From Mobula hypostoma (lineage: Eukaryota), in NCBI RefSeq assembly GCF_963921235.1, contig NC_086097.1, positions 73,720,001-73,784,000 of the forward strand: a stretch of DNA of 64,000 nucleotides, given 5' to 3'. Position 1 is the first letter of the stretch, and every line of letters starts with the position of its first letter. This document shows positions 7,049-62,200 of the stretch, piece after piece. The position numbers were made by a program, and so were the translations under genes. The notes below the pieces were generated by a model. The model did no database searches. It saw nothing but the letters and a program-made list of their open reading frames with translations, and was not told where the DNA came from.

Positions 7049-10000
7049 TGTCTGTCTGTCTGTGTCTTGTTTCATGGCGGTTGGCATCCAGCTTGATGGT
7101 GCATTACCGCCACCCTCTGCTCCGGAATGTGCACTAGACATATAATCTAAATCCCTTCACCCAATCTCGCACGCACGTGCGCACACACACACACACACAA
7201 ACCTACACTTTACCCTCCCATCTTTGACCATCCTAGTACCCTACTCCTGTTTATCTGTCATATCCTATAAAAAACCCCTGTACCCCTTAAGAACGCTAAA
7301 AATACCCGGACCTGTGCTCTCTCACCCATGCCCAGCAACCCTTTTAATGTGAATTCCTGCACCCCCAACTCCCTTAGTTTAATTCTCATCATCCCTCTCT
7401 CTGTATCCCATACTTCCTGTGTTACGTACCCTGTAACTGGGTTGCCAAACCAGCAGAAATGGACCGCTTAGTTGGAGTCTGGATTACTGGAACTGAGAAA
7501 GTTTTATTAAAGAAATAAGTAACACAGTACTCTAATAGTAAGGATATAAATGCAAAAGGTTAGCAATGATAAAACACACGTACACAGAACTAGGATAATA
7601 GGATCAATCAAGCTCTATCGCAGTCTAGGGGTAAAATGATCAGTCTCAAGTGATGCAGAGTTCAGTTCAGTATAGTTCAGTTCGCAGTAATCACTGTTGT
7701 GCCGTTGGGGAGAGAGAGAGAGAGTGCGAATGATGATACTCAAATCGGATTCAAACAGACCTTTGATATTCCTTGCAGTTAGCTTTCGGGCGAGCCCTTT
7801 GTAATGTCTTCTGAGGTCACCGACTGTGACCCCTCCGTTCCGGATACGATCGTTCTTCTGCGGTGAACCTGGCACCCAGGCAAGGGCGGACACACACACC
7901 AGGTTCCCGCCAATCGTACCTTTCCACCCTGTGCGTCTATGGTCGGTCTCACGACCAGACCTCCAAAACTCCCACCAACTTGTTGGGGGGGGGCGCACTT
8001 CCAGGGTCTCGTTATCTCGTGGTGTCGTGGTGTGTCGCTTGCCTTAGCGAACCTGTTCCTGTTATCCCCCTGCTGGGGTATCGCCTGTGCATCAAACTTC
8101 AAACAGTTCAGGTTCAAAGCAAACGGTCTGACAATACTGGGAACTGTGTCTCTTTTCGTTAAACTCTGTCGTCTCTCATATTAGCATTTTGAATGTTTCT
8201 CTCTTTGTCTCTCTTATCAGCATCAATCTTCTGATAACTTGGTCTTTTGTCACACCTGCAACTCAGAACTACATGTTCTACTGACTCCTTTTCCTGACAT
8301 TCCTCACACAATCCTGTCTGGTGTTTCCCTATCATTTTCAATGTTTTGTTTAATGCACAATGCCCCAGTCTTAACCTAGTCCACACAGTCTCCTCTCTTC
8401 TGTTTCCACTACCTGCAACACTTTTTTGTATTTCATATAAATGCCTCCCTTTCCCCTCCCTGTCCCATCTTCCTTGCCATATTTGGTTGACTTCTTCCCA
8501 GATTACACACTTAACCTCTGCTTTACTGATACTAATGTGCATTTCTACATTCTCTTTCTTTAACACCCTCTTTGCCAACTCATCCACCCTCTCATTCCCC
8601 TTCACCCCTACATGTGCTGGAACCCATAGAAATTTGACCTGACCTCTCTGATTTGCAATTCTTGTAACTAACTGAAGGACTTCATAAAGTACATCTTGCC
8701 AGCTGTTTGTGTGAAAAGACCTCAAACTTGCTAGAACTGAGGATGAATCTGAACATATCAATGCTTTGACTTGTCTGGCTTTCTGCACCCATTGCAACGC
8801 AAACAACACTGCCAGCATCTCCACTGTAAACGCCCCTAACTTATTAGATGTTCTTCTGCTGATTCCAATTTCTTTTGCTGGTATAACCACCCCAAACCCT
8901 GTCACTCCTGTTTCAGGTTCCTTCACACCATCCGTATAAATGTGAGTATAATCACTATACTTTTCCATCACGTAACAGTTAAATGCATTTACCAAATCTG
9001 TTTTATATCTTCCTTTCCTTTTTACCTCTAACAAATGCCAGTCTATGTCAGGCCATACAAGCTTCCATGGAGCTACAACCAGATAAACTGCTGAAGGACT
9101 TATCCTTAGATCAAACACTCCACATTCTTTCGCAATATCATTCCCTACCTGACTAAAGGTATCCCTCTGAAACCTCCCATTTTCCCAGCACTCCTGCAAC
9201 ATTCCTTTAGCAGGATGAGAATCATTGTGCCCCTGCAAGTCAGCCCAGTAGTTTGCCACCAGTTGCATCCTTCTTAGTTCCAAAGGCATTATTCCCATTT
9301 CTACCGGTAGGGCTGATCCTGGTGACGTTTTAAAAGCCCCACTGCACACTCTCAAATCACATCCAGTTTCCTTATAAGAGACCAAGCTGCTGATCCATAT
9401 GCTATGTTTCCATAGTCCAACACAGATCTCACTAAGGCCACATAAATTCTCTTCAACGCTGAACAATGTGCTCCCCATTCCCTACCAGTCAAACATCTCA
9501 TCACATTTATTACTTTCTTACATTTCTCCTCAACTTTCCTGATATGGTCTGCCCATGTTAATCGTTAATCAAATATAACTCCCAGAAATTTAAATGATCC
9601 AACCCTTTCTAATTCAATCCCATACATCCTTAACTTCTTCCCTACCTCAATTCTTTTCCTGGTAAAAAATACAGTTTGAGTTTTTTCTACTGAAAATCTA
9701 CATCCCCAATCATAACCCCACTCCACCACTTTATCAATTGCTTCTTGTAGTTTCCTGATTATATGCTCCATGTTCCTGCCTCTTTTCCACAAGGCCCCAT
9801 CATCCGCAAACAGTGACCTACCTATATCCACTGGTACCTTTGTGAAGACATCATTAATCATAATGATGAAAAGTAATGGGCTAAGCACACTACCCTGAGG
9901 TGGGCCATTTCCCCTAAGTACTGTTTTGATAATTCTGACCCAATCCGAACTTGAATTTTTCTACCAAACAAAAAATCTTTAATCCAAATAAAAACTCTCC

Positions 10001-12218
10001 CACCAACCCCCATCTTGTGCAGTTTAATTAATAATCCTTCCTTCCACATCATATCATAGGTTTTTTCAATGTCAAAAAATAATGCAACTACCGATTCTTT
10101 ATTTGCCTGGGCCTTCCTTCTTTCAGTCTCTAACCTTATCACTGAGCCCATGGAATTCCTTCCCTTTCTAAAACCACTCTGATAAGTTGCCAGCATTCCC
10201 CTCTTCTCAAGCTCATACGATAACCTTTCTGTTATCATCCTTTCCATTATCTTACATATATTTGATGTTAATGCAATTGGTCTGTAGCTAGTGGGTTTTG
10301 ACAGATCCTTGCCAGGTTTCCTTATTGGAATTACTACTGCTTCTTTCCATGCACTTGGTAATCTTCCCTCCTCCCACACTCTGTTATAAAAATGCAGCAA
10401 CTTCGACAGTGCTCCTTCTCCTAGATTTTTTAGCATCACAGAGCATATCAGATCTTTCCCTTGGGAGGTTGGTCTCGATCTCTTTATTGCTCTCACCATT
10501 TCTGCTAACGTAAATGGATCATCAATTATATCATCTGTTCCTTCCCTCCTGTTTAACACACCTGGGTGTTGGCTCATTTTTCTTTCCCTTCTCCTTCTCC
10601 CTTCTTCAGACAAATTTTCTGAACTGTGTATCAGTACAAATGACTTGGCCATGATCTCAGCCTTATCCCTACTGGAGACTGCAGTTTCCTCCTCAGATAT
10701 CATTACTGGATATTCCCATTCCCTTCTATCTCTTCCCATCCTCTTAATCATTCCCCATACCTCTCCCACAGGTGTTGTTCTTCCTATTTTGTTGCAAAAA
10801 CTCCTCCAACTTGCCCTTTTAGCTTGATGTATAGTTCTTCTCACCACTGCCTGTGCTTTCTTATATTGAACCAAATGCTGCATATTATGGGTTCTTTTAA
10901 CTAGCCTGAATGCTCTATTTCTGTTTTTTACAGCCTGACAACATTCCTCTGTCCTCCATGGTACCAGTTTCCTATGCATCCTATTTTTACTCCTAGGTAT
11001 AGATCCTTCTGCTGCCATAATAATTGCTGAAGTCACCTGACTGTTTAATTCATCTACATTTCCAGAAATATCAATCTTTGTCAATGTCTCTTCACTCTTA
11101 TTTCTTGAATTTTATTCTCCCGTCTCATAACCTCACACCCACTATATGCTACATTATGAGCTCCTCCGCAATTGCAGCATTTTGGTTGAACTCCTGTTCC
11201 GCACTTTCCATATTCATGATCACCCCCACAACTAGCACATCTCCTCTGCCTTTTACAGTTTTTAGCCACGTGTCCAAACCTTTGACAATTATAGCAACTC
11301 AGTGGCTTTGGCACATACACCCTTACTGGGTAACTCATGAAACCCAGGAACAGCTTCCTTGGCACTCTTTCTTCTTCAAATTCAATCAATACTGATTCAC
11401 TTTCCTTTTTCACTCCCTCCTTTGTTGTTTTCAGTCTTTGAACATTCATTACTTTCCCTCCTTTGATATTCCTCTTTAACTCCTCCATATTTATACTCAT
11501 TGGTATCCCCGTGATCACTCCTTTACGACCACTATTTTGTGCTCCCACCCTCCCAGTGTATTCCACCTTGCATTTTCCTATCTCTTTCAGCTTGAGTGCT
11601 TTCTCAAGTTGTTCCTCATTCGCACATCTTACCAATAAGTTGTCATCATTAAGGACTTTTGCAAATACTATTTCCTCTATCTTATTTGCCAGAGTTGTTG
11701 TTAGCACAAATGGGTTAATTTTCTTCATATGTCCTTGGGGCTTCTCATTAAACCTAATTATGACAACACCTCCTCTCTGAACTTGTACATCTTCCTCACT
11801 TTCAGAGCTCTCTCCACTGTCATTTCTTATTCTTTTATTCCCTTTGTCTCGGTTTTCATTCATCCGTCTCCTCATTCCCTTTATTTCTCCCTTCACAATA
11901 ATCCATCTCTCCCCAGCTGCCTACCTCTGATCCCAAGTCCCTATCCCGCTCCTTCTCCACTTTCTTTCCCTCAACCCCGCCTCTCATCTTGTCCGCCATT
12001 ACCGGACCCACACGACCCCCTCCCAGCAATTTCCGTTCCTTTCCCACTCTCTTTCCCTCAACAGGTTCCAAACCACATTCACGCATCAAGCAAAACACAG
12101 CCAGCCTCCCCTCCCTCCAACTAAACCTCCAAAGTTCCCCACCCGCTGATTCCTGGCCGTGCCCCTGTTCCAGTGCTTGGGAACTCTACAAGTCGGTCTC
12201 CATGGCAGCAACGTTGCG
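7049..12218 (-). mobile_element. Nimb/I-clade LINE: ORF1 (CCHC knuckles), RT, RNase H, C-terminal CCHC; APE endonuclease missing
   Basis: ORF1 CYNCQRFGHVAKNC; RT YRPIALTS, QSGFRKG, LFADD; RNase H YTDG..CSDS..WVPAHVGVKGNERVD; (CAGA)n tail; TSD GGAGCC(A/G)GGGTC at 7037-7048 and 12219-12230. Confidence 0.9.
7420..8254 (-). mobile_element. Gypsy (Gmr1-related) solo LTR, 835 bp
   Basis: TG...CA ends; 4-bp TSD CCTG (7416-7419, 8255-8258); shares blocks (aactgaactgaact, ttacccctagact, ccatttctgctggtt) with the LTR at 59229-61084. Confidence 0.85.
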
Positions 12219-16442: not shown

Positions 16443-16959
16443 ACAGGAAACAGGAAATTACAAGCTAAACCAAATGACAATAAATAGGATGTTTCTGATA
16501 TTCAATTAAACATATTAAAATTTAAGTGATTACCTAAAATGCAGTAAAATTAACTTATTGAATTAAACAAAAAATAAGTGAGGGAAAAGTGCAAGACACG
16601 TGGGATCAATTTTGGTTGTGTTTTAATTTAAACTTAAATTCTTTCGAAGTTTTATTTGTTTTCCAGTCATGGGATGACTGTGTAAATATGCTGTGCTGCA
16701 TTGTAAAATAAGAATAAATAATAATAAACATTTGAATTACAAAAAAATAGATTAACTGCAACTTCCCCATGCCATTCAAAATGAATGGATTAGCTGAACC
16801 CATCTCCTGGTCTAAACTGGCCCCAAGGTACAAGGGACAGATTTCTCCGTATAAATGATGCAAAGCTGCGGGAAGTTGGTGCCTCATCCCTGTTGGAATG
16901 CAGTCACAATGACAGTGTATTGAGTCCCTTCATTACTAATGCAACTTGGCATTTGTTTT

Positions 16960-18531
16960 GATAAGTCCCTGGGACCTGATGGTCTGCATCCCAGGGTACG
17001 TAAGGAGGTGGCTTTAGAAATCGTGGTAATCATTTTCCAATGTTCTATAGACTCAGGATCAGTTCCTGTGGATTGGAGGGTGGCTAATGTTGTCCCTCTC
17101 TTCAAGAAGGGAGGAAGAGAGAAAACAGGGAATTATAGACTGGTTAGCCTGATGTCAGTGGTGGGAAAGATGCTGGAGTCAATTATAAAAGATGAAATTA
17201 CAACACATCTGGATAGTAGTAACAGGATTGGTCCAAGTCGGCATGGATTTACAAAGGGGAAATCGTGCTTGACTAATCTTCGGGAATTTTTTGAGGATGT
17301 AACTATGAAAATGGACAAGGGAGAGCCAGTGGATGTAGTGTACCTGGACTTTCAGAAAGCCTTTGATAAAGTTCCACATAGGAGATTAGTGGGCAAAATT
17401 AGGGCACATGGCATTGGGGGCAGAGTACTGACGTGGACTGAAAATTGGCTGGCTGACAGAAAACGAAGAGTAGCGATTAACGGGTCCCTTTCGGAATGGC
17501 AGGCAGTGACCAGTGGGGTACCGCAGGGTTCAGTGCTGGGACCGCAGCTGTTTACAATATATATTCATGATTTAGATGAGGGAATTAAAAGTAACATTAG
17601 CAAATTTGCCGATGACACAAAGCTGGGAGGCAGTGTGAAATGTGAGGAGGATGTTATGAGAATGCAGGGTGACTTGGACAGGCTGGGTGAGTGGGCAGAT
17701 GCATGGCAGATGCAGTTTAATGTGGATAAATGTGAGGTTATCCACTTTGGTGGTAAGAACAGGAAGGCAGATTATTATCCAAATGGAGTCAAGTTAGGAA
17801 AAGGGGAAGCACAACGAGATCTAAGTGTTCTTGTACATCAGTAACTGAAAGTAAGCATGCAGGTTCAGCAGGCAGTGAAGAAAGCTAATGGCATGCTGGC
17901 CTTCATAACAGGGGGAATTGAGTATAAGAGCAAAGAGGTCCTTCTGCAGCTGTACAGGGCCCTGGTGAGACCACACCTTGGAGTATTGTGTGCAGTTTTG
18001 GTCTCCAAATTTGAGGAAGAACATTCTTGCTATTGAGGGAGTGCAGTATAGGTTCACAAGGTTAATTCCCGGGGTGGCGGGCCTGTCATATGTCAAAAGA
18101 TTGGAGCGACTGGGCTTGTATACTCAGGAATTTAGAAGGCTGAGAGGGGATCTCATTGAAAAATATAAGATTATTAAGGGATTGGACACGCTGCAGGCAG
18201 GAAGCATGTTTCCACTGATGGGTAAGTCCAGAACCAGAGGCCACAGTTTAAGAATTAGGGGTAGGCCATTTAGAATGGAGTTGAGGAAAAACTTTTTCAC
18301 CCAGAGAGTGGTGGATATATGGAATGCTCTGCCCCAGAAGGCTGTGGAGGCCAAGTCTCTGAATGCTTTCAAGAAAGAGATGGATAGAGCTCTTAAAAGA
18401 TAGCGGAATCAAAGGTTATGGGGATAAGGCAGGAACTGGATACTGATAGTGGATGATCAGCCACGATCACAGTGAATGGCGGTGCTGGCTCGAAGGGCCG
18501 AATGGCCTACTCCTGCACCTATTGTCTATTG
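16960..18531 (+). mobile_element. 5'-truncated CR1 LINE (RT domain plus 3' UTR)
   Basis: ORFs 16939..17844 and 17978..18403: GPDGLHPRV, YLDFQKAFDKVPH, GVPQGSVLGP, KFADDT. Confidence 0.92.
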
Positions 18532-19739: not shown

Positions 19740-22700
19740 CTACAGATGGAAAAGGAATTATATTGAATGAATGTTTGCATTATTACAACAATTTTTGGTG
19801 GTTATACTACAATCTTTCTTCACCACAGTTGCTGAAGATTTCAAATTGTGTTTTTATATATTTCAGATTTCCAGCACTTGCATTATTTTGCTTTTACAAT
19901 AATATTAAACTCAACATACAAAAAGATAAGCACTGTCTAACACAGTTTCCCAACTAAATTTTTATATTTACTGCAAAAATGAGAAAAGCTTGAGAATCTG
20001 CCACATGTCAGGTCAAATGCAAGACCAAAAGAGTCAGCTGAATGTTTTAAATATATGCAAATTTTACTGTAGGTTCTTGCCAAAGCATCACTTTCATTAA
20101 ATAGAGAAATAATTAGTATAAAGTAGAAAATTTACATTTTGCTAAGTGCAAACACAATTTCACTTAATTTGATTTCAATTTCATAGGATGAATATTTCAG
20201 TAAACAAATATTTGACAAATGTTAGTTTAACCTTCTACTCTCACTAGTAATATATCCCATCATCTACTTCCAATTTCAATATATCAAAGCTGTTTTGAAT
20301 CAGGTGACTTAATGACTTTTTAATGCTTACCTTCAACATGCTAGAGTAAATCAAGGTGCTCCATAGACTGTTAACAAACACAATTTAACAATGGTCTCTA
20401 TCCAACAAGATGTATTGAGGGAACAATTCTTACATAAAGCACACATACAAATCAACAATAATTTTATAGGGGTATTAATTTTTTCTAGTTTTAAAAAGCC
20501 TGTGAAGTGCTTCCCTCTATATTAATAATCATTTCTACATTTCAAGAATATGGCAGACAACGGCCATATCAGATGGAATTCAATAAAAAATGATCAAACA
20601 TAATACACACCAAAATTCCACAAGACTTCAAAATCAACTTTGAAGATTTGCATGTCTGTTTGAGAAAGCCGAACGCACAAAAGAAAAGAAATCGGCAGAT
20701 TTGGTGCCAAGACAGATTCTAAAGCAGTTGCTTACCTGTCTGTATTGGTGCATACTCTGAATGATGTGCATGTACATATCATAAACAAAGTTTGCCATCT
20801 CTGGCATGTTCTTGATAACTCGCATCAAGTGGGTTGGAACACGGCCATTCTAAACAAAAAAATATTAGCAACCATTGTAACAGTATTACCAAAACATGTC
20901 AAAACTAGTATTAAATCACTACTATACGCCAAAACACTAAAGAGAAAAGATACCCTTCTGTCTGTGGGGAAGTACTCCGATGGGACAATGTGGAGCTGGA
21001 GTGGCCGAGCAGTCAGTTGATTGAAGGCTGGTGTAAGCTCAAAGCAGTTCTGGAAGAGCGATACTCTTGCAAAGATGTACAGTCCAAGCCTGGCTCTTGA
21101 CATTGCAACAACTAACCGACGAACATCTCTAAATAAAAAAGATGAAAACTGTTAAAATACTGATTATTGTAAGAAGGCTTTTCTGCTGCAGCTAAAAAAG
21201 ATATTGAGTTAAACAAAGAATATTTCCATGTAATAATTATGTCACTTCAATAAGGTTCAACTCCCATTTTTTCCCATCAATAGGTGAACATTTTAAGCTG
21301 ACAATTGATGACAATACAGCATACAGTTCATTCATTATTTGAACTGAATATCATTGATAAGTATTTATTGAGCCAGCTGTAGCACTACAGGCAATGCTGA
21401 ATGCACCAGTGTTTCTATGGTAATGGGGGAGACTAAATATGTTTAAAATAGATTTAGATGTTTAAAAATGATTTATATTTGGGTATCAATCATGATTTAC
21501 TATTTAATTAACTGAACAACATGACAAAACCCTGAGATTCTTTTTCCTGTGGACAACTTAGCAGATCTAAGGAACACTAACTGTAAACAGGATCAATGAA
21601 TGACAAACTGTCCAAATGTAAATATAAATAAGTAGCAATAAATAACGAGTATGAAATAACAAGATAAAGTGTCCTTAAAGTGAGACCATCGGTTGTGGGA
21701 ACACTAGAAATAGAAATAGAAGTAGGATGAGTGTAGTTAGATTATGAGAACACTCCGTCCTCGTTTATTGTCATTTAGAAATGCATGCATTAAAAAATGA
21801 TACAATGTTTCTCCAGAATGATATCACAAGAAAACACAGGACAAACCAAGACTAAAACTGACAAAACCACATAATTATAACATGTAACACACATCAAAGT
21901 TGCTGGTGAATGCAGCAGGCCAAGCAGCATCTGTAGGAAGAGGTGCAGTCGACGTTTCAGGCCGAGACCCTTCGTCAGAACGAAGGGTCTCGGCCTGAAA
22001 CGTCGACTGCACCTCTTCCTACAGATGCTGCTTGGCCTGCTGCGTTCACCAGCAACTTTGATGTGTGTTGCTTGAATTTCCAGCATCTGCAGAATTCCTG
22101 TTGTTTTAATTATAACATGTAGTTACAACAGTGCAAAGCAATACCATAATTTGATAAAGAGCAGACCACGGGCACGGTAAAAAAAAGTCTCAAGGTCCCG
22201 ATAGACTCATCATCTCACGCAGGCGGCAGAAGGGAGGAACTCTCCCTGCCATGAACATCCAAGCGCCACCAACTTGCCAATGCAGCACCATTGGAAGCAC
22301 CCGACTGCAGCAGACTCTGAGTCCGTCTGAAAACTTCAAGCCTCCGACACAGCCTCTCTGAGCACCATCCTCTGCCAAGCGCTTCGACCCCGCCCCGGCC
22401 GCTGAGCAACAAGCAAAACCGAGGACTTGGGGCCTTCTCCAGAGATTCTGGACCACACAGTAGCAGCAGCAGCAAAGCAGGCATTTCAAAAGTTTCACCA
22501 GATGTTCCTCCATGCTCTCACATCCGTCTCCATCAAATCGGGATTGTGCACGCCACCCCACTTGACAAATAAGACATCACCACTGGAGTAGCCGCTGTGA
22601 GCTGCGTCGTGTCGCCATCTTCTCCTCCCGCCCTTTAGTTATCCCCTTTTGTTTAAGAGCCTGATGGTTGTGGGGTAGTAACTGCTCTTGAACCTGGTGG

Positions 22701-28700: not shown

Positions 28701-31700
28701 ATCAGCAACTGAAAGTAAATGGAACATTTTTCTATTCCATTCCAGATTGCTGCTGTTTATGCTTATTATCATTTGCCAACAATAGCTTTTTTACTGTTAT
28801 TTCATCATTTGTTATTTTTACTGTTATTTCATCATTTGTTATCTTTTCTGTGTAGTGAAACAAATTTCTTTTTTTCCTGACTTATCATCAGAAATGGTGT
28901 TCAATTTGGACCTTTATTTGATATGAAAGGCAATTCTTGAAGAATGATATAAAGCACGTGAGTTACACTTTACACTATAATTAATGTTCATGTGGAACCA
29001 TATTGTGAAAAAATGAAGAACAAAGTAAATCCACTGAAGGATTTATTTGATTCTAGTGATTGAATTACTTTTATTTACACTTTGTAGGACTTTTAACCTG
29101 CTTTATCAATGTGAATAAATTCTGTAATGCTGGCATCAATTGCGACATCCAGGGAGTTGAAAATGTCATGCCTCACACCATACCTCAGATGTCCAACAGC
29201 TTTAGTTCGTACCAATGAGAGAATAATATAATCATTCTGTTGTCCTTGGAATCTGTCCACTGTGGTCACCTGGAAGGAAGAAAATAGACTCCTCACTTCT
29301 GAGATAACTTGGCTTGGGGGAGTAGAATTGAGGGGGGAAAAAACTTACAGTCACTTAAAGGTTCTCTATTTGAAATTTTTAAATCCTTTCTTAATATTGT
29401 AGACTTTATAAATTAAGTCTCAGTAAAAATAAGAATTTGCAGAAATAAATCTATAAAATGCTCCAAGGAGCATTCCAATTCTGGATCACAAATGACAGCA
29501 GCAGAACAAATTCCACACGTTCCCTGAGAAAATGCAGCCCAAGTGAGCTGACTTTTTCATTCCCAATCCAATACTTAGGTGCTTAAAGAACTTGTTGAGA
29601 TTAATATGATGAATACTTCATACGCATGTTAAAAAAATCTCCCTTTCATTGCAATGCCTTCACAGGCCATCTCTAGTGCAACTCTTAGCAAGGAATTAAC
29701 TAACACTCAGTTATGAGATACTCTCTAATATTCTCTTATTAGCTACTACACTAAAATCTTCAACAAGAGTGACTGAAATTGGGAATTAACAACCAAGGAA
29801 AATTGAATATGCAATTTTCACACACTACATCAGATAATTTCCATCTAATTGATGTTTAGAATCTAGTTGCAAATTATCATTATATGTTACTGCCTCACTG
29901 TAAATCTGTCATGTATCAATGTTTGAAGAGGAATCTTACCTTGCTTGGACGACCTATAAGAGGATTACTACCACAACGTTGATTGATTACATCACGAATC
30001 AAATGCTTCTGACCATTATAGGTTGTCAAGATACTAATTCTCTCTGCAGGATATCCCAGTAGGCGCATGTACATAAAAAGGGCCACTGCATACTCAGCCT
30101 CAGCCAGATTCTGTTAAATGTGAGCAACAATTTGAATTACAGAAAAGCAGGCAATGGATTTGAAACATGATTGCACACGTTTAAACACACACACAAAATT
30201 AATATATTCTTTAAGTTCTTGCATATTACTTCAAAAATATCTGGATGATTTTGGAAATATGCTAATGGAAGATAAATCAGTCAGCAATGTTAGATTGTTA
30301 TTAAGCGAACTATTTACCTGGTAGAAGTATGGATTTGGTTCTGATTCACCAATTCCATTGAAGTCCTCCACATTGATAAGTTGGAAGTCGTACACTAACC
30401 CAGCATTAGCAGCACAAAACTCAGGTAGCGTCTGGACGTGCGGAAGATTACCAAGTTTCTTATAACGCCAGTTATAGAGGTTGCACAAACTTAAAGGAAA
30501 ATAAAGTAGAACATGTAAATAAGACCATAAGACCAACAAACAAAATTAGGCCATTCGGCCCAATCTGTCTGCTGTGCCATTTCATCATGGGTGATTTATT
30601 ATCCCTCCTAACCCCACTATCCTGTCATCCTGTAATCTTTGACACTCTGATTAATCAAGAACTCATCAACCTCCACCTTAAATATACCCAATAACTTGGC
30701 CATTTGTGGCAAAGAATTCCACAGATTCACCACCCTCTGGCTGAAGAAGTATTTCCTCATCTTGGTTCTAAATGGACATCCCTCAATTCTGAGGCTGTGC
30801 CTTCTAGTCCCAGTTTCCTCTCACAATCATAAACATTCTCTCCATATCTGATCTACCCAGATATTTCAATATTTGATAGGCTTCAATGAGATCCCACCCC
30901 CCCCCATTCTTCTAAACTGCAGCAAGTGCAGGCACAAAGCCATATAATGCTCCTGATACATTAACCCTTTCATTCCTGGGATCATTCTCGTGAACTTCCT
31001 CTGGACTTTCTCCAATGCCAGCATATCCTTTCTTAGATAAGGGGCCCAAAACTACTCACAAAACTCCAAGAGTGGTCTGACAAATGCCTCAAAGGCTCAG
31101 TGTTACACCCTTGCTTTTGTATTCTAGTAATCTCAAAATGAACAGTAACATAGCATTTACCTTCCTAACCACCAACTCAACCTGCAAGTTAACCTTCAGA
31201 GAGCCCTACAACGTATGTTTTGTGAGAGTGCAGATGAACAAGAGCGTAAATAGTCAAACCCAGAGGAGATCGAAGTTCTTATTGACAGTTATTTTATTTC
31301 TTTTAAGCAATGAACAAAAAACTGGACTTGGTAGCTTATTATCCATAAAATAGCTTCAGGTTTACTTCCACTTAAAAATTCAGTGCGCACATGTTGTCAT
31401 CACTGGGCAAAAAATTGTACAGCTTAAGATTTTTATACACACCAGTCATTACAAATTAAGAGGGAACATTGCTACTAATGCCTCCAGAATCTCTTCAGCT
31501 ACCTCCTTCAGAACCCTGGGCTGGAGTCTATCTGATTCAGGTGACTTTTCAGTTTCCCAGGCATCTTCTCCTTAGTAATAGCAACGACAATCACTTGTGC
31601 CCCCTGACACTCTTGCACTTCTGGCATTCTGCTAGTTTCTTACACAGTGAGGACTGATGCAAAATACTTATTAAGTCCTTCCACTATTTCTTTGTCCCCT

Positions 31701-37700: not shown

Positions 37701-40700
37701 GTAAATCTTGAGGGACACACACAAAATGCTGGACGAACTCAGCAAGTATGGCAGCATTCATGGAAGAGAATAAACAGTTAACATTTCGGGCTAAGACCAT
37801 TCATCAAGGCTGGAAAGGAAGAGGGCAAAAACAGAATAAGAAGGTGGGGGGGGAAGGTGTACATTTGGCAGGTAATAGGTATGACAAGGTGAGAGGGAAG
37901 GTGGGTGGATGGGGGAAGAGATATGAATTAAGAAGCTAGGAGGTGGTAGATAAAAGAAATAAAGAGCTGAAGAAGGAGGAATCTAGTAGGAACAGACAGT
38001 GGACTATGGAAGAAAGGGAAGGAGGAGGAGCACCAGAAGGAGGCGACGGGCAGGTCAGAAAAGAGGGGTGCGAGAGAGTGAACCAGAATGGGGAATGGAA
38101 AAAGAGAGAAGGGGGATTGGGAAGAATTTACTGGATACTAAAAGAAATTGATGTCCATGCCATCAAGGAGGCAACCCAGATGGAATATGAGGTGTTGCTC
38201 CTTGAACCTGAGTGTGGCCTCATTGTGGGATAGAGGAGGCCATGGATTGACATGTCTGAATGGGAATGGGAAGTTGAATTGAAATGGGTGGACACTGGGA
38301 GATCCTGCCTTTTGCAGCGGATGAAGGTAGGTCCCCCAATTTTGCAGACATCCAACACATATTTGAGAACTGGAATGGTCAAGGATAGATCCTTCAGTGA
38401 TAACAAACGAATATTTAAAATACAGGAAAAGCAGTTACTGTAATTGATACAGAGGCTTCAATTGAATTATTGACGAAATAAGCAGGTGAGTAACTTCCTA
38501 CCTAAATGGATGACAGTGGTGAGGCAAGTGAGAAGTTTGTTTAAAATTGTAAAGATATAAGATTACTGCTGCAATAATAATATCAAATGAAAACTCTTCT
38601 CCAGCTTCCAGCTGAGTATGAGCATCGATTTTAACTGACTTTTCGATGACAGACTCTGCCATCTTCATCAGGGATGATGCCTGGGCTTGTCTAGTCCGGT
38701 GATATTTATACCACTGTTGTTAGTCCCTCTTGATTCGTTAATCCTCATCCAATCAGATTTCTGCTGTCCCATCTTGTTTACAATCGAATAATATTAAATC
38801 AGATATAATCAGTGATTTTTTTGTGTCACAGTAATACAGTACGAACTCGGGGGAGAAAACCCATTTGGAGGAACTCAAAGAGATTTTTAGGAAATATGAC
38901 CAGGAGTAATTTGTGGATAGAATATAGACAAGAATACGAAAAAGTGGCCAACACTATCAATATAGGCTTAAAACAGGGATTATTTAAATTTCAAGTTTGC
39001 ATTGGTGGGCTGGAGAAAACAAGTACAACAGCAATGGAAATTGATGAGATAATTTCAGAGTCAAAAAGGCCCATAAAATTCTTGTGATTATTGTGGAAAC
39101 TGAGTTTGAAAGATTTAAGAATGTTATTTACAGTAACATAAAATGAGATGTTATGTTGGCATTCTAGGAATTCTGCACAGCACAACCTGTTTATATTGCT
39201 GTGCCTTCCTTATATTTGAAATTTGAAAATGTCCCCCAAATTATATGGACAAAGTAGAAATGATTTTAGCATCAAACAATAGTGCTGGGTGTCTCTCTCC
39301 TTCACTCATCAGTACTCATGGTTTCTCTTCACAGTAGTTTTCATTCTAATCTGATCAGACAATTAATGATTGGAACAATGTTGTGATTTCATAATTACTA
39401 AAATGACTTGGCAAATAAGAAATAATAAAATCAGCACATTGCAACAAATCTGACATGTAACAAAGAAGTTATGCAATCTCATTTCAGAACATCTTTTTGT
39501 GGATTCATTAATGCTAATTTTAAGTTAAGCAACACCAAAACAAATTACATTTCTATTCATTATGTGACTGGTGAAAATCTGGACAACACATTTAGTTAGT
39601 GAAAATTAAAAGATGATCACTATTCTTAAAAATATGGCCTACCTCCAACTGTGTAAATATTTTATTAATGTGCCTGAAACACCCTTCAGCTATTTCCATA
39701 TCTTCTTCATATGATTGACATTTAAAAATAGGCTGTGGTGCATTGGCAAAGTATTTATGGAATGGAAAATGTTCAGACACTGCTGTAACATCACCAGACT
39801 TTCCACTTTTGGCTTTTACTTTACTAAGATATTCTTCCCAACGAGACATCACCTGAATGAAAACAAAGATAACCGTACTATCATACACGGCTGAAACAAT
39901 CATTAAGAATAGACCTAGTAAAAATTGATTCAAACATTAAAAATTAAATTCTTAATTAAAATATGAATGGTAAATCCTTTAAAATATGATACAGAGATGC
40001 TGAAATCTGGATGAAGATAAAAGGGCTGGAGGATGAGCAGACGTGAAGACACAGGGGCAGAAAGCATTATTAATTGTTTAAATCAAATTTTTATGCAGGA
40101 AATAGTGTAACATTTACAGCCCATTTAAAACAAGTGTGTCATGCAACCAGTCACTGCAATAACGTATAAACAAACGCATGGGGATTACCCGAACATTAAT
40201 CAGAAAATGCATTAAGCACTCGAACAAAAATCAATAATCAGGCCACCGAACACTGAGCATGGATACTATTCTTAAAAATAGGGCCTGATATTTTTAGGTA
40301 ATACAGGTAATACAGCTATGGCTTACCTGATACAGGTAAAAATGTCCAGCTGTTTCACAGGTATACGAGACATCTCCAGGAACCCCAAGACTCTCTTGTA
40401 ATCGCCCTACTTCCCGCAACAACTCAAGTCTCCGAGCCAGCACATAATTCACTCGGCCGTATCTATTATTAACAAGTAAGATTGCTCTAGCTAGGTATAG
40501 AAATCCACACACAATTAAAACTACATATCTGGATTATAATCAAGTACAAATACAGTGCTGCTTGTACACAAGGTAACAAGCAAATGGTAAAACAGAAAAT
40601 AATTTCGCACAAATCTGAGAATTTAAAATTTATAGAGTGCAAAATATAAAATCTAAGATCCACAAAGTCGGAAGCTAGTCAATACATAAAAATCACAGCT

Positions 40701-43700: not shown

Positions 43701-46700
43701 ATACACTCAACTTGGTCCAAATCTGCTGAAGCATGAGCCATAAATTCAGCCTTTTTAAAAAAAAAGCAAAAATAAACGAAGACCAGAAAAGCAGTGAAGA
43801 ATTCATAAAAGTACCAACAATATAGCAAGGAATTCAAACAGCAGACACTAACTAAAGATAGTCGCAATATAAACTATCTTATAGGGATAAATTATACTCA
43901 ATAATTAAATATAGTTTAATGCCACTTGTCCTGATTTAATATAGGAACAGATTATTCCTATGACGGCTTTTTTTCCTCATGAAACATTGAATCCATATTT
44001 AATTTACAGTTCTTCACATGAATAAAATGATGTAAATCAATAAGAAAGCCTTTATTAATTTATCTAGACGGTAGAGTAAGAATCAACAAAGATAACAGCA
44101 AAATTTTAAAGACAACACCAAGTAAGCTTTGAATTTATACAACGGATTTGCATTTAAGTCTGCAACATAAGAATATTACTTCACATTTGTACAGAACAAC
44201 TTCAAAGGCCAGTTTCCTAAATCTTAAATCTGATTTTCAGAGGGCATTATTGTATGACTTTGCAGTCTCAATTTCTGTCAGATAGTCTCAGTCTGTTGCA
44301 ACTTTTATTAAATTATAATACTCCAAATTGCTCACCTGCTAAAATCCTTCTCAGTCTCCAGCTCCTCTTCGCCATGACCCAGACGAAGAAGGTGACGCTC
44401 ATCAATGTCAAGAGCCATGATCTTCTCAAACAGCTGGTTCAAAGCCTGTAGATTGACAGCAACAAATGACAGAGTTTTATAGAAGTGAGAATAACTTTTA
44501 AAAAGTCTTAAAACAGCTGCTCCAACTTATGAAAAGAAACTTATTTCTGTAACACTTCCATGCGTTGAGAGAGATCAGTATGGCTTTAGAACAGTGTCAA
44601 TTTTAAATTGTGTATTTTTAGTTATTTGGATAATATGTAAAATTCATTTGCAACAATTTACTTCTGCACAAAATCAGTAAATTGTCTACCTTATAGGAAA
44701 GGAAGATGACAGACTTCTATTTATACACCACCTTTCACAGTTGGGGGTTGTCTTTAAGTGCTTTCCAGTCAATGAAACACTCTGGAATTGTGGTCACTAT
44801 TGAAATGTAAGAAACCAGCAGCTAATCCTGTGGAAGCAACATTCCACAAACAGCAATGGTTTGATAAGTTATAAGACAGTCAGAGCTTCTTTTAAATCCA
44901 CCGAAAGGACAGATGAGAAAGTGTCTCTGGAGACAATCTGAAAATAACTTGCTAAAAATCTTTCATGATTCTCAACATCTTTCACATTAACTGAAAAACA
45001 GACTTGCATGACATCTCTGTTAAAAGCAAAAAGGAATAAGCATTTTGTTTGACTGAGTTCTGTCCTATCGTGACCTTGACTGATCTGTTTTTAGTTCCTC
45101 TGCTCCAACTTTTCATGCTTCGTGGAGGCAAGTTCAACTTATTAAGAGCTTGGAGGTTGCTTAGAATCTCCTTTTTTGGTGTTGGCCATGTATGTCAAAG
45201 CTTAAAGGTTTGTCCAAAGGTGATGAGCTTTGAGAAGATGTGAGTAATATTTTATTGCAGAAATCAAGCTGTTGAGTTAACGATACTGCACAACATGCCT
45301 TTGTTTTTATTTAAATCCAGAATTTATTTAAGAAAACAATGGATGAACGCCCCAGTGACTGTCAGGTAATTGGGAAAAATGACCTACACAATATCTGTCA
45401 TCAGGTACTTAAGTAATTCATATTGTGTCTGAAATAACACCAAAGGCTATACTCGGTAGGTCAACAAATGTGCAGGATGTTTGTGTCAACAAGGTGACAT
45501 GCATTGTTTCTGGTTCAACCATCTACTAATGTGTAAATATAGGAGTAGGAACCTTCTGGAATTAAATTCAGTTTTCCAAAGCCAATGGGTATTGATTACA
45601 TCCATACAACACTGTGCTTAAAGGCAATAATTCCTCCGCAAAAACCTGTAGATTTAATTGTAGTTACAAGAGAAAGTGCGGGTGTTTGAAATCCTGATAA
45701 ACACACACAAAATGCTGGAGGAACTCAGCAGGTCAGGCAGCATCTATGGAGGGAAATGAACAGTCAACATTTTGGGCCTTGCCCCTCTAGAATTGCTGGT
45801 GAAACATGAAGCCTTGATGGCACTTTAAATGGGGAAGACCATGCTAAGAATTATGCCACAAATTACAAGATGGCCCAGTACACTTTCTAAGGACAAGACA
45901 ATTCTTAAATATTTTGATGCAATAGAGTATCGAGAGATTGGGCCAGATTGTACTGACTTCAGCCAATGGTTCTGATGAGACACTAGCATTTTGCCGTTAA
46001 AACTGAAATAAGTTCAATTTTCAGTTTAATTATCATTCAATCATACACGAATACCCATGAATAGAGGCAAATAGAACAGCATTCCTCAGAGGCCAAGATG
46101 CAAAACAGAGTAACAACTGTCATTCTCAGCACAAGGCACACACAGCACATATAAGATAGGAGTGCACATACGGTCACACAAAAAAAAACAATATAGCCAA
46201 AGTCCCTGAGTGCCATGTCCTGTAGATTGACAGTGCACGGATATTGTCCACAAGAACAAGCCTGCAGCAGGCTGATCATCACGCGCTAGTGCAGCCGCAG
46301 ACAATTGCAAACCAGTTTGTCTTCAACCGAGGGGACACTGAAGGGCAGCTCCAACAGAAAGGGCCAGACCCCAACCTAGTAAGGACTCCAGAGAGCCTGC
46401 CGTGCCTCCATTCTCTCCCACCCCTCTTTCGGTGTCTCTCCTCTGGGTGTTGCAACAGATGACCCCTTGGCATGAGGTGCTATTACTGAGACAACACAGC
46501 TCCCCTGCTGTCAGTGTCACCAATTAACCAGACTTGCAGCATTCTAAATTACCAATGTCCAACAGGGTCTTGCAATCACAAGAAAAACATCCAAGACTAT
46601 CACTCGTACTATTTGCTAAACCACACATCGACTCCAACACCTTCCTGGAGCAAGCAGCAACACAGTCCGAAACAACTCCAGCTCCCTCACTATCAAGCGA

Positions 46701-49700
46701 GTCACTAGTGGGGTAGACGCTCAATACTTGATGTCCTTAGTATCCAGCAGTGTCTTGTGACCATAAGAAAGACATAAAAGATGAACAATTACACCACTGG
46801 TTGGATCCAGAGTGGCTGTTGCAACCACACGCACTGCGATCTGAGGAGAATGGTAAGCTGCATGATTATGCATAGCCTCTGTAAGAACACACAAGTTCAG
46901 GAGTTACCCCTTCAACAGAGCAGTTCAGGTCACTCTGCTGGAGTCAAGCCTTGATGAGACAGCCAGGCACTATCCTATGCCAGACCTGACCAGATACTTT
47001 ATCTCAGGCCCCAGTAATTTTGACAGGGATCACAGGGCAAAGGGTGAGAAGGCCAAGGTTATTCTTTAAGAAAATATTTCACTTGTTTGGTTTAATTACA
47101 GGTTTCCCCCGCCATCCGAAGGTAGAGAGTTCCTATGAAACGGTTCGTAAGCTGGAATGTCGTAAAGTGAAGAAGCAATTACCATTTATTTATATGGGAA
47201 AAATTTGTCAGCGTTCGCAGACCCAAAAAATAACTTACCAAATCATGCCAAATAACACATAAAACCTAAAATAACAGTAACATATAGTAAAAGCAGGAAT
47301 GACATGATAAATACAGAGCCTATATAAAGTAGAAATACTTTTCTACAATCATTGCTGCACTGTTCTCCGTAGCGAAAATCTCACGCAAGCGCTCTCGGCA
47401 GAAACACTCTTTCCAGTAACCTTTAAGCTATGAAGCTGCCAAATCATACTAAATAACACATAAAAATACACAGCCTATATAAAGTAGAAATAATGTATGT
47501 GCAGTGTAGTATCACTTACCAGAATCGGGATGATGGCACCGAGCACACTGATGATGGTGTGTTAGGCTGAGTCGTCGGAGGTTAGGGTGGTGCAGTGGTC
47601 CCCAACCTCCAGGCCGCCGACCAATACCGTTCCGTGAAGAATGCAGTGATGCAGCGGTAGCCGGGATGCACCCAGCACATCTTCAAGAAAAAAGCCAAAA
47701 TTAACAAGCTAATTAGTTAGGTGCCGCCTGGCATGTAAATGTCGTCCCAGATCAGAGGCGACACAATCGGCAATCGCCTCTGATCTGAGCTGCCATTTAC
47801 GTGCCAGGCGGCACCTAATTAATTAGCTTGTTTGTTTCGGCTTTTTTCTTAAAGATGTGTTGGGTGCGTCTCAGCTACTGCTGCATTCTCCACGGCCCGA
47901 TATCAGTCCGCGGCCCGGAGGTTGGGACCACAGGGGTGGTGGGACACTGAGGTGTCATCTCATCGTCGTCTGTTTTCATCAGGGCAGGCAGGTCACCTTC
48001 TTCTATGTCTGCCTGCCTCAATGTCGAAGGTCGAGGATCGTCGTCTGCTGTGGCTGATGTGGAAGTCTTGAAAAACGACAGTATGCTTGACTGTTTAGCC
48101 TCGTGCATTTTTCTATCATACAGTTCTTTGTAAGCACTCAAACCATCCTGCAAATATGCCCTAAAGCTAAGTACCCTTTCAAAATTAAAGTCGTACTTTT
48201 CTGCAATAATTGCAGCGAAAATCTCACGTAGTTGCTTCACGTTCAGTTCCTGGACGACTTCTCTTTCGGTCCATTCGCTACTGCATTCGGTTTTGATTGT
48301 TATCCTTTCCTCTTCCAATTGTACCAGCTCTTCATCTATCAGTTCTTGGTCATGGGATGCCAAAACCTCTTCAACATCATCTTCGTCAACTTCCACAAGC
48401 CAAACTCACTTTGTCCTTCCTTTGCTCACCACGATCGAAATGCTTAATTATGTCTAGTTTTACGCTAAATGTAACACCCTTATGAGCTCTTTTAGGCTTT
48501 TCCGATACCTTAGAACTCATCTTGCCAACGGCTGTTCACAGGCACATGCTTAAGCAATGCTGGCTAGAATGCAGTTCCGGGGGAGAAGCTTGGCTGCTCG
48601 GGGCACGCACTGCCTTTTTTTCCGCGCGCTGCCTTTTCTCGTAAGTGAAAACAGGTAACTAATGTAGGTTTTTCGTAACAGCAAGGTTTCGTAAAGCTAA
48701 TGCTCGAAAAGTGGGGGACACCTGTATTTCATTTTCATATTTTTTTTTAAGTTAACAAGACTACCTTGGGAATGCATAAATATCTTGAAACAATGGAATG
48801 GCTATTGCACTTGGTTTTACCTCACTGCAGCATAAGGATTTAAAACTGGCCTCTGATCAATTCATGCCCAGAATACCAATAATTTTTAGTATACTGTCTG
48901 ACAGATAATCACTTTGACAAAAAAAAATTTAAACTTTTTTTTAAATAAGAAGGGAAGTCAGGCGTCAACAGTACCGGGAGGAAGAAATCCAAAATTAATT
49001 AGAAAACATTAAATTTTGCTATCTTAGGAAAGAATTGGATTGACCCAACAAACTTCACTTCAATAAAGGCTACAAACAGGTATTTCTACCTCATAAATTA
49101 TTTAATCTTGACATGAAAAAGAAAAACATATTCTATTTATAATAGAATTGCATAAGTATAAATAAGGCAAACCAATGTATCCTATTCTTTTTCATTTACC
49201 AGTTAATCAAAGGTACTTTTCCAGGATTTTAAACTATACTAATTAAAATCACACATTTAAAATGGTCATCTAAATACTGAAATCACAAGCTTTAAAACAA
49301 TAGGAATGCATGAAAACTGTGTCAAATACTGCCATGTGCTGCTTGCAATCTATTTTTGAATCTAGTTAAATTGTGAGGACAAGCTTTTTCAGTGTTGGTC
49401 ATTAAGGTTGTGGAAAACAGAACCTAAACTTGCTTCCTTGGGAATAACCTTATGTGATAAACTTCCATATTCAGAAACTATAAGCATGGCTAACATGTTG
49501 GGGTACAGAAAAAGTAAAATCTGACTTATGCCACTTAGAACCACTTGTGAAAATCTAAGCATGTTTTTGGGTAGACTGAAATTCACTTATTTTCATATGC
49601 CTGACTGAGGATGCAAGGAACTGTCAATGGATAGTCAAGATGGAAAAGAAAATATTATTATAAGCACATCCACCATCAGCATCCTAGCAAAATAAATGAG

Positions 49701-55284: not shown

Positions 55285-55621
55285 CTGGAAATGAAATACA
55301 TTTTTTTTATGAAGTCACTCTAAACAAAAGCCACCACATGAAATATAAAGGAAATACTTGCTTAAAGTTGAGACCTAACCATCGATCTAACATGACTAAG
55401 TGGGAAAGCATAGAGTTATACTTACAACATCTGTAAATAATGTGGTAATTCCAGAGACTATTAATACTGTTATAAACACTGAGCTTTTCTTTAAATTTTA
55501 CAAGTTTTGGGGTCTAATTATTTATGAAAGAAAAGGAAACGAAAGTCATGATTTCTTTGATGACAACGGAAACCGTGAATATGATCAGGTGAAATCTTCA
55601 AGATAAACCAGGCTAAATATA

Positions 55622-55720
55622 AGTCCTGATGAAGGGTCTCGGCCTGAAACGTCAACTGTGCTTCTTCCTATACATGCTGTCTGGCCTGCTGCATTCCACC
55701 AGCATTTTGTGTGTGTTGCT
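55622..55720 (+). mobile_element. Penelope pseudo-LTR fragment with hammerhead core CUGAUGA...GAAAC-GUC
   Basis: agtc-CTGATGA-aggGTCTCGGcct-GAAAC-GTC-aact at 55622-55657. Confidence 0.75.
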
Positions 55721-59228: not shown

Positions 59229-62200
59229 TGTGACTGGGTCCTGAATTACCCCTATGAACTGTGCTTTTGAAAAGAGAGAGTTGTTCAACAGCAGATACCT
59301 AGTTAAAAAGAGAGAGAGAGAAAGAAAGAGAGAGAGAGGCGAAGATTGCTCACAGTTTGTTTATACTTTTTACAAGGACATTAGCAGTTTCCAAGTTCTT
59401 ACAGAGAGAGAAGGGAGGAGCTGCTTGATGGACAGCTAGTATTCAGCACGGTGAGATACATAGAAGGTTAGCTGTTAGACCTACAGACACATGGTTTTGG
59501 ACACTGAATGAGCTTTGTTGTACCCACAGAAAAGGTGGGTTTTGGAGGATCGATCGGTGGCTCTCACAGTGTGAAAGGGGTGTGACCGGTGGGGAGTTAT
59601 TCGTGTGTCCAACCCTCGCCTGGGTTGATAATTCCAGCACAGAAGAACGATCCCCTTTGTTGTGGTCACAGTCAGTGATTTCTAAAGGATTACGGAGGAC
59701 AACGGGAAGATCGACGGCGTCAGCTCACCTGAAGACTCAAATCTCTCCCTCTCTGTCTCTCTCCATCACTACTTAACTACTTGGTATCATGGATTCTTGA
59801 TTACCTGACTGGCAGACCACAGTACGTGTGCTTGCAACACTGTGTGTCCGACAGAGTGATCAGCAGATGGGGCTCCACAGAGGACTGTCTTGTCTCCCTT
59901 TCTCTTCATCATTTACACCTCGGACTTCAACTACTGCACAGAGTCTTGTCATCTTCAGAAGTTTTCTGATGACTCTGCCATAGTTGGATGCATTAGCAAG
60001 GGAGATGAGGTTGAGTACAGGGCTATGGTAGGAAACTTTGTCATATGGTGTGAGCAGAATTATCTGCAGCTTAATGTGAAAAAGACTAAGGAGCTGGTGG
60101 TAGACCTGAGGAGAGCTAAGGTACCGGTGATTCCTGTTTCCATCCAGGGGGTCAGTGTGGACATGGTGGAGGATTACAAATACCTGGGGATACGAATTGA
60201 CAATAAACTGGACTGGTCAAAGAACACTGAGGCTGTCTACAAGAAGGGTCAGAGCCGTCTCTATTTCCTGAGGAGACTGAGGACCTTTAACATCTGCCGG
60301 ACAATGCTGAGGATGTTCTACGAGTCTGTGGTGGCCAGTGCTATCATGTTTGCTGTTGTGTGCTGGGGCAGCAGGCTGAGGGTAGCAGACACCAACAGAA
60401 TCAACAAACTCATTCGTAAGGCCAGTGATGTTGTGGGTTGGAACTGAACTCTCTCACTGTGGTGTCTGAAAAGAGGATGCTGTCTAAGTTGCATGCCATC
60501 TTGGTCAATGTCTCCCATCCACTACATAATGTACTGGGTGGGCACAGGAGTACATTCAGCCAGAGACTCATTCCTCCGAGATGCAGCACAGAGCATCATA
60601 GGAAGTCATTCCTGCCTGTGGCCATCAAACTTTACAACTCCTCCCTTGGAGGGTCAGACACCCTGAATTGATAGGCTGGTCCTGGACTTATTTCAAAATT
60701 TACTGGCATAATTTACATATTACTATTTAACTATTTGTGGTTCTATTACTATTTATTATTTATGGTGCAACTGTAATGAAAACCAATTTCCCCGGGATCA
60801 ATAAAGTATGACTATGACTATAACTAACTCAATACCACAAACTGAACTGAACTTTACTCATTTTCGTAAGACTATCTATTTACCCCTAGACTTGAAGAGG
60901 CTTGGTTTTTATATACATTTCCACATTTACTTATATAAAATCATTGCTAACCTGTTTTATATATCTAATTTTATACTACTGTATTGCGTAGTTACTAATA
61001 AATACCATTAGTTAATAGCAATACTGGACTCCAAAGTGTTTTCCATTTCTGCTGGTTCTTTAACCCGTCACGGGGTATGTGACAAAATTGGGGCCTACGT
61101 CCGAGATATGAACAAATTGGTTGGAGGGCTTGTTTGAGTTGATTGGGGAGAATCACTTTTGATTTGCTTGTGTGGAAAAACAGCAGACATGGTTGTTCCG
61201 GATTTTCTGGCAGGGCCAGACCCTGTGGTTTTGAAGAGAGCTAAAAAGGAAGAGTTGCGGAAAATTGTTGAGGAACTGGAACTTAAGATGGTAAAGAAGG
61301 GTATGACTAAGGTAGAAATTCAGAGAAAAATAGTTGACTATTTTATTTCGATGAAGCAATTTACGGAGGATGTATTGAAAATGTTCGTGGAAGGTAAACC
61401 TACTGAAGCTTCAGTTGGCAAAATTAAAAATGGAGCATGAATTGCGATTAAAATTGTTCGAGGTGGAAGAGGCTGATAAGCAGAGAGATTTTGAGAGGGA
61501 GATATTGCGGCAAGGAGGTCAAGTGCCACGCCGTGGTACTGAACAGGCAGCACCGTTTAATGTGAGCCAAGAAATTATGTTGGTACCTCCATTTGAGGAA
61601 ACAGAAGTCGATAGGTATTTCCTACATTTTGAAAAAGTGGCCATATATTGGAAGTGGCCGAGAGATCATTGGGCTGTCCTGTTACAGAGTATGATTAAGG
61701 GGAAGGCTCGACGAGCGTATTGGGCGTTGTCTGTTGCAGACGCAAATGATTAATGATGTAGTGAAAGGTGCTGTACTTAAAGTTTACGAGTTGGTCCCGG
61801 AGACATACAGGCAAAGGTTCCGAAATTTGAGGAAGCCTTGGGACTGCACGTATTTAGAGTTTGCCCGTGAGATGCAGATGTACTTTGAATGCTGGTGTAC
61901 CTCGAAAAGGGCAAGTGAGGATATTGACAACCTAAAAGAGTTGATATTGATTGAACAGTTTAAAGACTGCGTCCCTGATGGTAAAAGGACATCTTAGATG
62001 AGAAAGAGGCAGCGACACTGTCAGACTCTGCTAGGTTAGCAGACGAATATGCCTTAACTCATAAGGTTAGGTTTTTTCCGAAGAGGAGCTACCAAAAGGG
62101 TAATAGAGATAATCCACCGGCTAAACCAGAAAGTAAGCCAGGAACTAGAGACAAAAGTAAGGAGGAAGGAAAGCAGTTGGGGGAAAATTTCCCAGTTTCA

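Follow-up and report, generated by a model that had tools for sequence, protein, structure and literature searches.

Insertions of Penelope-like elements (PLEs) carry an inverted, 5′-truncated copy at their 5′ end and a tail of 30–40 bp that is often present at one end only, as described in the accessible text of PMC8557442. In rotifers, PLEs with an inverted pLTR, a 31-bp tail, target duplications of 8–10 bp and palindromes at the head-to-head junctions were reported (PMC3846280, accessible text). The protein of the anole PLE cuts and extends both strands and prefers AT-rich sites. Two RNA start sites bound its tail, and insertion takes place without the need for ribozyme cleavage (both in the available portion of PMC11167929). 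The ribozymes themselves were characterized as minimal hammerheads; single copies showed no cleavage in vitro, and dimers were cleaved weakly (PMC4209133). Another group of elements, the non-LTR retrozymes, was reported from one cartilaginous fish genome, according to the accessible part of the preprint (bioRxiv 10.64898/2026.07.22.740005).

The palindrome analyzed here is found in the devil ray Mobula hypostoma. All positions refer to the window, i.e., the whole stretch of 64,000 nucleotides that was analyzed (contig NC_086097.1, positions 73,720,001 to 73,784,000). We consider it highly probable that an abundant PLE inserted once, recently and as a dead end, to give the palindrome. Two severely 5′-truncated pLTR ends were probably joined head-to-head at integration, and the hammerhead of the palindrome is predicted to be inactive.

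The locus and the architecture of the palindrome

The splicing gene AQR occupies the minus strand. One of its exons matched human Aquarius with an E value of 3e-31, and an exon scan of the window identified helicase-type exons throughout. The palindrome, 220 bp enclosed by the two target duplications, is intronic. It is flanked by the exon at 29184–29269 and by another that starts near 21086; the palindrome precedes the latter by about 790 nt, on the side of its 3′ splice site. Both AQR and the hammerhead core are on the minus strand, as expected from the preliminary description of this DNA, which had assigned the core to the AQR pre-mRNA strand. The insertion is nested inside an older high-copy host repeat (window 21737–22380), and the empty form of this repeat, i.e., the repeat without the insertion, is abundant in both DNA runs, X1 and X2. 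The unique flank of the locus is identical to organism B over 129 nt and shows 2 differences in 103 nt with respect to organism A.

Other AQR introns include palindromic structures as well. The one at 53504–54034 is 531 bp long, with 87% self-identity and a fold of −390 kcal/mol, and its ends resemble what we take to be a Tc1/mariner-type MITE. Another, at 47595–47931, is 337 bp long (79% self-identity, fold of −240 kcal/mol) and is probably an older MITE. Broken reading frames were observed at 8159–11920 (minus), 16924–18403 (plus) and 61379–63818 (plus); their motifs presumably correspond to a LINE-type RT/RNase H fragment, a CR1-type RT fragment and an LTR-type gag/integrase fragment, respectively.

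The geometry had been described as two 90-bp arms with one mismatch, a 4-nt loop, a 37-nt tail and a 15-bp target duplication, and all of these elements were confirmed (Table 1). Positions 21886–21975 pair with 21980–22069, and the last base of the left duplication contributes the outermost pair. The sole mismatch, 21911 T versus 22044 G, fits one CpG transition. On the AQR strand this mismatch is an A·C pair, a context favored by ADAR. The minus-strand fold reached −196.3 kcal/mol (z = −29.8), and none of 200 shuffled sequences was equally stable.

Table 1. Coordinates of the palindrome, its parts and a related solo copy in the window.
Feature	Position	Strand	Remarks
Left target duplication, 15 bp, AT-rich	21872..21886	+	15/15 identical to the right copy; inside older high-copy host repeat
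Inverted pLTR-like copy, tailless	21887..21978	-	From hammerhead C3 (21978) to the proximal 3′ end of the family (21887/21886)
Minimal type-I hammerhead	21948..21981	-	Core 21978-21972, stem II 21970-21959, cleavage site 21951/21950
Head-to-head junction with 4-nt loop	21976..21981 (loop 21976-21979)	.	A at 21979 differs from the family letter
Forward 5′-truncated pLTR-like copy	21980..22069	+	Begins at hammerhead A6, without C3-U4-G5
One-sided tail, 37 nt	22070..22106	+	Stops at the distal 3′ end of the family
Right target duplication, 15 bp	22107..22121	+	Identical to the left copy
Related solo copy in another AQR intron	55621..55720	+	84.5% identical, tailless, 7-bp duplication

The target duplications are A/T at 13 of their 15 positions, and the 15-mer occurs twice in the whole window. 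Both copies have a G (21884 and 22119) where the loose-end consensus of the host repeat has an A, which indicates that a local variant was copied and that the pair of 15-mers is a true target duplication. The arms share a minority allele at 21923/22032, with the other letter being the majority in the family (71–88%); this finding fits a single source template. The ends, the duplication and the solo arm were also compared with the general features of MITEs. A MITE was ruled out by the asymmetric ends, the 15-bp duplication and the occurrence of the arm as a solo copy.

The hammerhead motif

The minus strand had been said to contain a complete hammerhead core with a predicted cleavage site at 21951/21950 and a stem I of only 3 bp. 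Both statements hold: C3 is located at 21978, the conserved core nucleotides and the NUH site are present, and the 3-bp stem I includes a G·U pair. Two other details needed correction. Stem II exists, but the A–U register originally assigned to it is not the best one, as the published PLE register, with an unpaired base after A9 followed by G·U, G–C, G–C and U·G, is 1.4 kcal/mol better. Likewise, the plus-strand copy, thought to have lost CUGA, does lack C3-U4-G5 but keeps A6 at 21980.

The hammerhead search that had been recommended was run on the 64 kb with a descriptor and produced two matches, the palindrome and the related solo copy (55626). When the minimal-hammerhead descriptor was applied to 100 shuffled sequences, the mean was 0.06 matches, and none of them had a stem I of at least 3 bp. 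No hammerhead match was obtained with Rfam up to an E value of 5; the minimal motifs are without stem III. In the window, the AQR strand contains a single intact hammerhead core. Stem I has AGUC as its 5′ strand in the copy at 55621–55720 and in the family loose-end consensus, and this native strand would give 4 bp. In the palindrome, the letters of the junction are found instead of AGUC.

Predicted folding agreed with the earlier proposal that the hairpin masks the ribozyme. Positions 21974–21945 were paired with a probability of about 1.0, and the predicted penalty for a hammerhead-compatible fold was 58 kcal/mol in the full element versus 7.6 kcal/mol in the arm alone. Due to the head-to-head layout, the antisense arm comes first in a transcript from either strand. 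Folds of growing prefixes, which are equilibrium folds and not kinetics, had the duplex already zipped when the cleavage site emerged. The idea that the masked ribozyme is functional did not find support, given that transcription reaches the antisense arm before the ribozyme and that stem I has lost its native strand. The loss of this strand, the lack of a dimer partner and the cost of 58 kcal/mol to escape from the duplex led us to predict that the hammerhead in this palindrome is probably inactive. Folding energy alone does not prove inactivity, since the anole PLE ribozyme needed a protein for its activity, as reported in the available portion of PMC11167929.

A role of the hairpin or of the masked ribozyme in AQR expression, be it through editing, small RNA or conditional cleavage, was also considered and is very improbable. 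The core is on the pre-mRNA strand, with a 3′ splice site at a distance of about 790 nt, and the 90-bp duplex could serve as a substrate for ADAR, for which long intronic duplexes of about 90 bp are plausible targets. However, the insertion is of young age and lies inside another repeat, the native stem I was lost and there is no dimer partner on the AQR strand, the Rfam microRNA matches are all under the gathering scores, and other AQR introns contain two longer palindromes. For the last reason, the claim that the element creates a long intronic dsRNA stands only in part: the duplex is predicted, but it is not special among the AQR introns. The effect on AQR is likely that of a passive 90-bp intronic duplex. 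A microRNA precursor was rejected because 0 of 15 Rfam matches reached the gathering score and the best of them rest on pairing alone.

Abundance, 3′ ends and junctions of the family

Contigs were aligned to positions 21480–22380, a stretch of 901 bp that includes the host repeats. Three runs, X1 and X2 (DNA) and X12 (only guessed to be RNA), were chosen among 24 listed as containing the stretch. The aligned contigs numbered 59,666 (X1), 93,809 (X2) and 4,543 (X12). Summed arm depth, which is not a copy number, was in the millions in the DNA runs versus 7–10 on the unique flank. The arm family is plainly very abundant in the contigs of two related organisms.

The 3′ ends of the family are found at two positions. 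Behind 22106 there were 456 (X1), 469 (X2) and 56 (X12) loose ends with mixed flanks, and this position marks the distal 3′ end of the family in the three runs. Five X12 contigs leave the reference at 22068, and the solo copies in the window stop within a few bases of there; 22068 marks the proximal 3′ end, one tail-length upstream of the distal end. The left arm of the palindrome stops at the proximal end and the right arm at the distal end. On the other side, past 21978, the family contigs carry different, native letters, with 293 (X1), 401 (X2) and 57 (X12) loose ends. Family depth in X1 was 4.6 versus 4.8 million on either side of the cut site. With no drop at this point, there is no visible sign that cleavage defines the 5′ ends.

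The solo copy at 55621–55720 starts at the native stem I strand and is antisense to AQR; its core is intact, and the first pair of stem I is broken. Two other solo copies, at 45700–45786 and 37703–37791, have the same or related pLTR ends and are tailless and decayed. The repeat is exonized in two annotated Mobula proteins, P0002 and P0003, and the family therefore occurs in devil rays. A protein search with the open frame yielded four candidates, of which only two proved to be related, as exonized fragments; no RT or GIY-YIG frame linked to the family was found among them. A family motif scan detected no loci in viral, metagenome and prokaryote collections, where ray DNA is not expected. Among the openly accessible papers listed by literature searches, none described this family from rays or a palindromic derivative of PLEs; the family may already be catalogued in Repbase or Dfam.

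Both P0002 and P0003 enter the repeat at the same residues, V-S-P-D-E-G. Upstream of 21978 (minus strand), the family consensus has a pyrimidine tract and an AG two bases before stem I. Together, these features suggest that the family ribozyme has at its 5′ edge a splice acceptor, which would be missing from the truncated AQR copy. The candidate acceptor is similar to one reported for the D. virilis Penelope. We tentatively propose, as a possibility about which we remain doubtful, that family cDNAs stop at a fixed 5′ boundary of the RNA at stem I, beside this probable splice acceptor, rather than at the cleavage site.

The preliminary description had presented the palindrome as a distinct retroelement, and the axis junction bears directly on this point. 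At 21979, G accounted for 96% of the depth in X1 and X2 and 100% in X12, with the A of the window reaching at most 4%. Non-G depth at this position was about 0.1% of the summed arm depth, an amount that permits up to about 270 (X1) or 1,200 (X2) single-copy equivalents. G at 21979 was found in 99 (X1), 110 (X2) and 11 (X12) contigs, in some of them 22–34 letters from the contig end. Some of these contigs may extend across the axis of a palindrome in the G form, a situation compatible with a junction present in multiple copies; they can also be short native overhangs. A G at 21979 would make the arms overlap by a 3-nt microhomology (21979–21981).

Among the best 15 of 364 joints, 10 leave 21978 and land at 10 different sites within 22023–22071, in the right arm or the tail, and one further joint slides to 21978; the joints come from short contigs with a shorter side of 18–29 letters, and joints of this kind are often repeat-derived. 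The reference has no sequence upstream of 21978, so the anchoring at this position is partly built in. Where the linking letters are known, the five distinct junctions at 21978 all share 2–3 nt with the native continuation, with a rough chance of 2e-6 calculated on selected rows. The X12 joint 21976–22051, with a start other than 21978, was excluded from this count. Several asymmetric junctions had a summed depth of 50–250 versus the single-copy value of 7–10.

These data can be read in a second way, which we regard as quite unlikely: the palindrome would be a copy of a non-autonomous hairpin family with a shared axis (mostly G at 21979), transcribed whole and inserted anew by PLE proteins. 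In each DNA run, about 100 contigs have the G inside the alignment, some away from their ends. The depths of several asymmetric junctions exceed the single-copy level, and non-autonomous PLE derivatives are known, namely retrozymes and, from the accessible text of PMC8557442, the Chlamys derivatives. Nonetheless, the left end, located at the proximal family end, abuts the duplication as priming at insertion predicts, whereas variable 5′ ends would be expected if entire hairpins were copied. In addition, the junctions are varied, the contigs with G are explicable as native sequence overhanging by a few letters, and a perfect 90-bp duplex would be a poor template. The rarity of the axis letter and the many differing junctions favor a palindrome built during insertion over a hairpin family that copies itself. 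It is correspondingly improbable that a hairpin master arose from a microhomology hotspot at the hammerhead 5′ edge and was copied as a self-antisense, ribozyme-masked mini-retroelement family of rays, of which the AQR copy would have one axis change. Were such a family of self-copying hairpins to exist, it would represent a new type of non-autonomous derivative of PLEs.

Formation of the palindrome and comparison with known systems

Four characteristics of PLE insertions (EN+) are found in the palindrome: a minimal hammerhead, a head-to-head inverted truncated copy, a one-sided tail and AT-rich target duplications. The portrayal of the element as non-coding, young and composed of two inverted PLE-type pLTR ends was supported. 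Its designation as a distinct palindromic retroelement was not, since the layout is that of a standard PLE insertion product, the junctions are varied and the axis letter is rare. The same rarity and variety agree for the most part with a one-off insertion, the outcome named beforehand as the one that would speak against a family, while a multi-copy variant of the junction may exist.

A single insertion could have occurred as follows. The endonuclease of the element would cut both strands of the AT-rich site, 15 nt apart. One target end would prime reverse transcription at the distal start site, generating the arm with the tail, and the other would prime at the proximal site, 37 nt upstream, generating the tailless arm. 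Both cDNAs would stop at the 5′ edge of the hammerhead and be joined there, probably through the 3-nt microhomology. The change from G to A at 21979 would be later or borne by an error. In the AQR pre-mRNA, the antisense arm would be synthesized before the ribozyme and would base-pair with it as the latter is transcribed.

In a different route to the same structure, still a PLE insertion, a single cDNA or an antisense template would yield the inverted arm through fold-back or self-priming. Self-priming on an antisense template was proposed as an explanation in the accessible part of PMC3846280, and it accounts for the identity of the arms, the shared minority allele and the microhomology at the junction. 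However, only the right arm has the tail and only the left arm has C3-U4-G5. Each arm has bases missing from the other, and neither is therefore a simple copy of the other cDNA. Furthermore, the anole PLE protein extends both strands in vitro (PMC11167929, available portion). We find this route unlikely and favor two separately primed cDNAs.

Compared with known systems, the palindrome is most similar to Pen2a_Av of Adineta vaga (PMC3846280) and to the scheme in Figure 2 of PMC8557442, both as far as their accessible text goes. The shared traits are the head-to-head truncated pLTR, the one-sided tail of 30–40 bp, the target duplication and the junction palindrome. Unlike the Pen2a_Av insertion units as presented in that text, it has no ORF, and both copies are cut to about 90–127 nt. 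The duplication is 15 bp in the ray versus 8–10 bp in the rotifer examples given there (PMC3846280).

The reference for the hammerhead was the consensus given in PMC4209133 (supplement file 2). It resembles the minimal PLE hammerheads of that study in its CUGANGA with an unpaired base, stem II, GAAA, loopless palindromic stem III and NUH, and the native stem I of the ray family has 4 bp, as in those motifs. A G·U replaces G10.1–C11.1 of the consensus, a substitution also present in some of the listed fish and frog motifs. In contrast to the published motifs, the stem I 5′ strand consists of junction letters, and the motif is buried in a 90-bp duplex. Terms for cartilaginous fish were absent from the supplement text searched (file 1 was outside the search).

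Like the non-LTR retrozymes, as characterized in the accessible part of the preprint (bioRxiv 10.64898/2026.07.22.740005), the palindrome is short, non-coding, hammerhead-bearing and PLE-derived. In retrozymes, units that each bear a ribozyme are arranged head-to-tail in tandem, whereas the palindrome is head-to-head with one intact core. No tandem array was found over the palindrome and its arms are inverted; a non-LTR retrozyme, as defined in that text, was consequently ruled out.

Poseidon PAc of Anolis (Frangieh et al. 2024), according to the available portion of PMC11167929, is similar in its two 3′ ends, located a tail-length apart downstream of the hammerhead, and in its AT-rich target. 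The lack of a family depth drop at the cleavage site is also like PAc and is consistent with an uncleaved RNA template. As a clean, minimal instance of a PLE insertion signature that is already known, the palindrome changes little. The clustering of junctions at the outer edge of the ribozyme, rather than at the cut site, adds one data point on PLE integration, and the presence of a tailed and a tailless arm within one target duplication matches the two start sites of reverse transcription observed in vitro.
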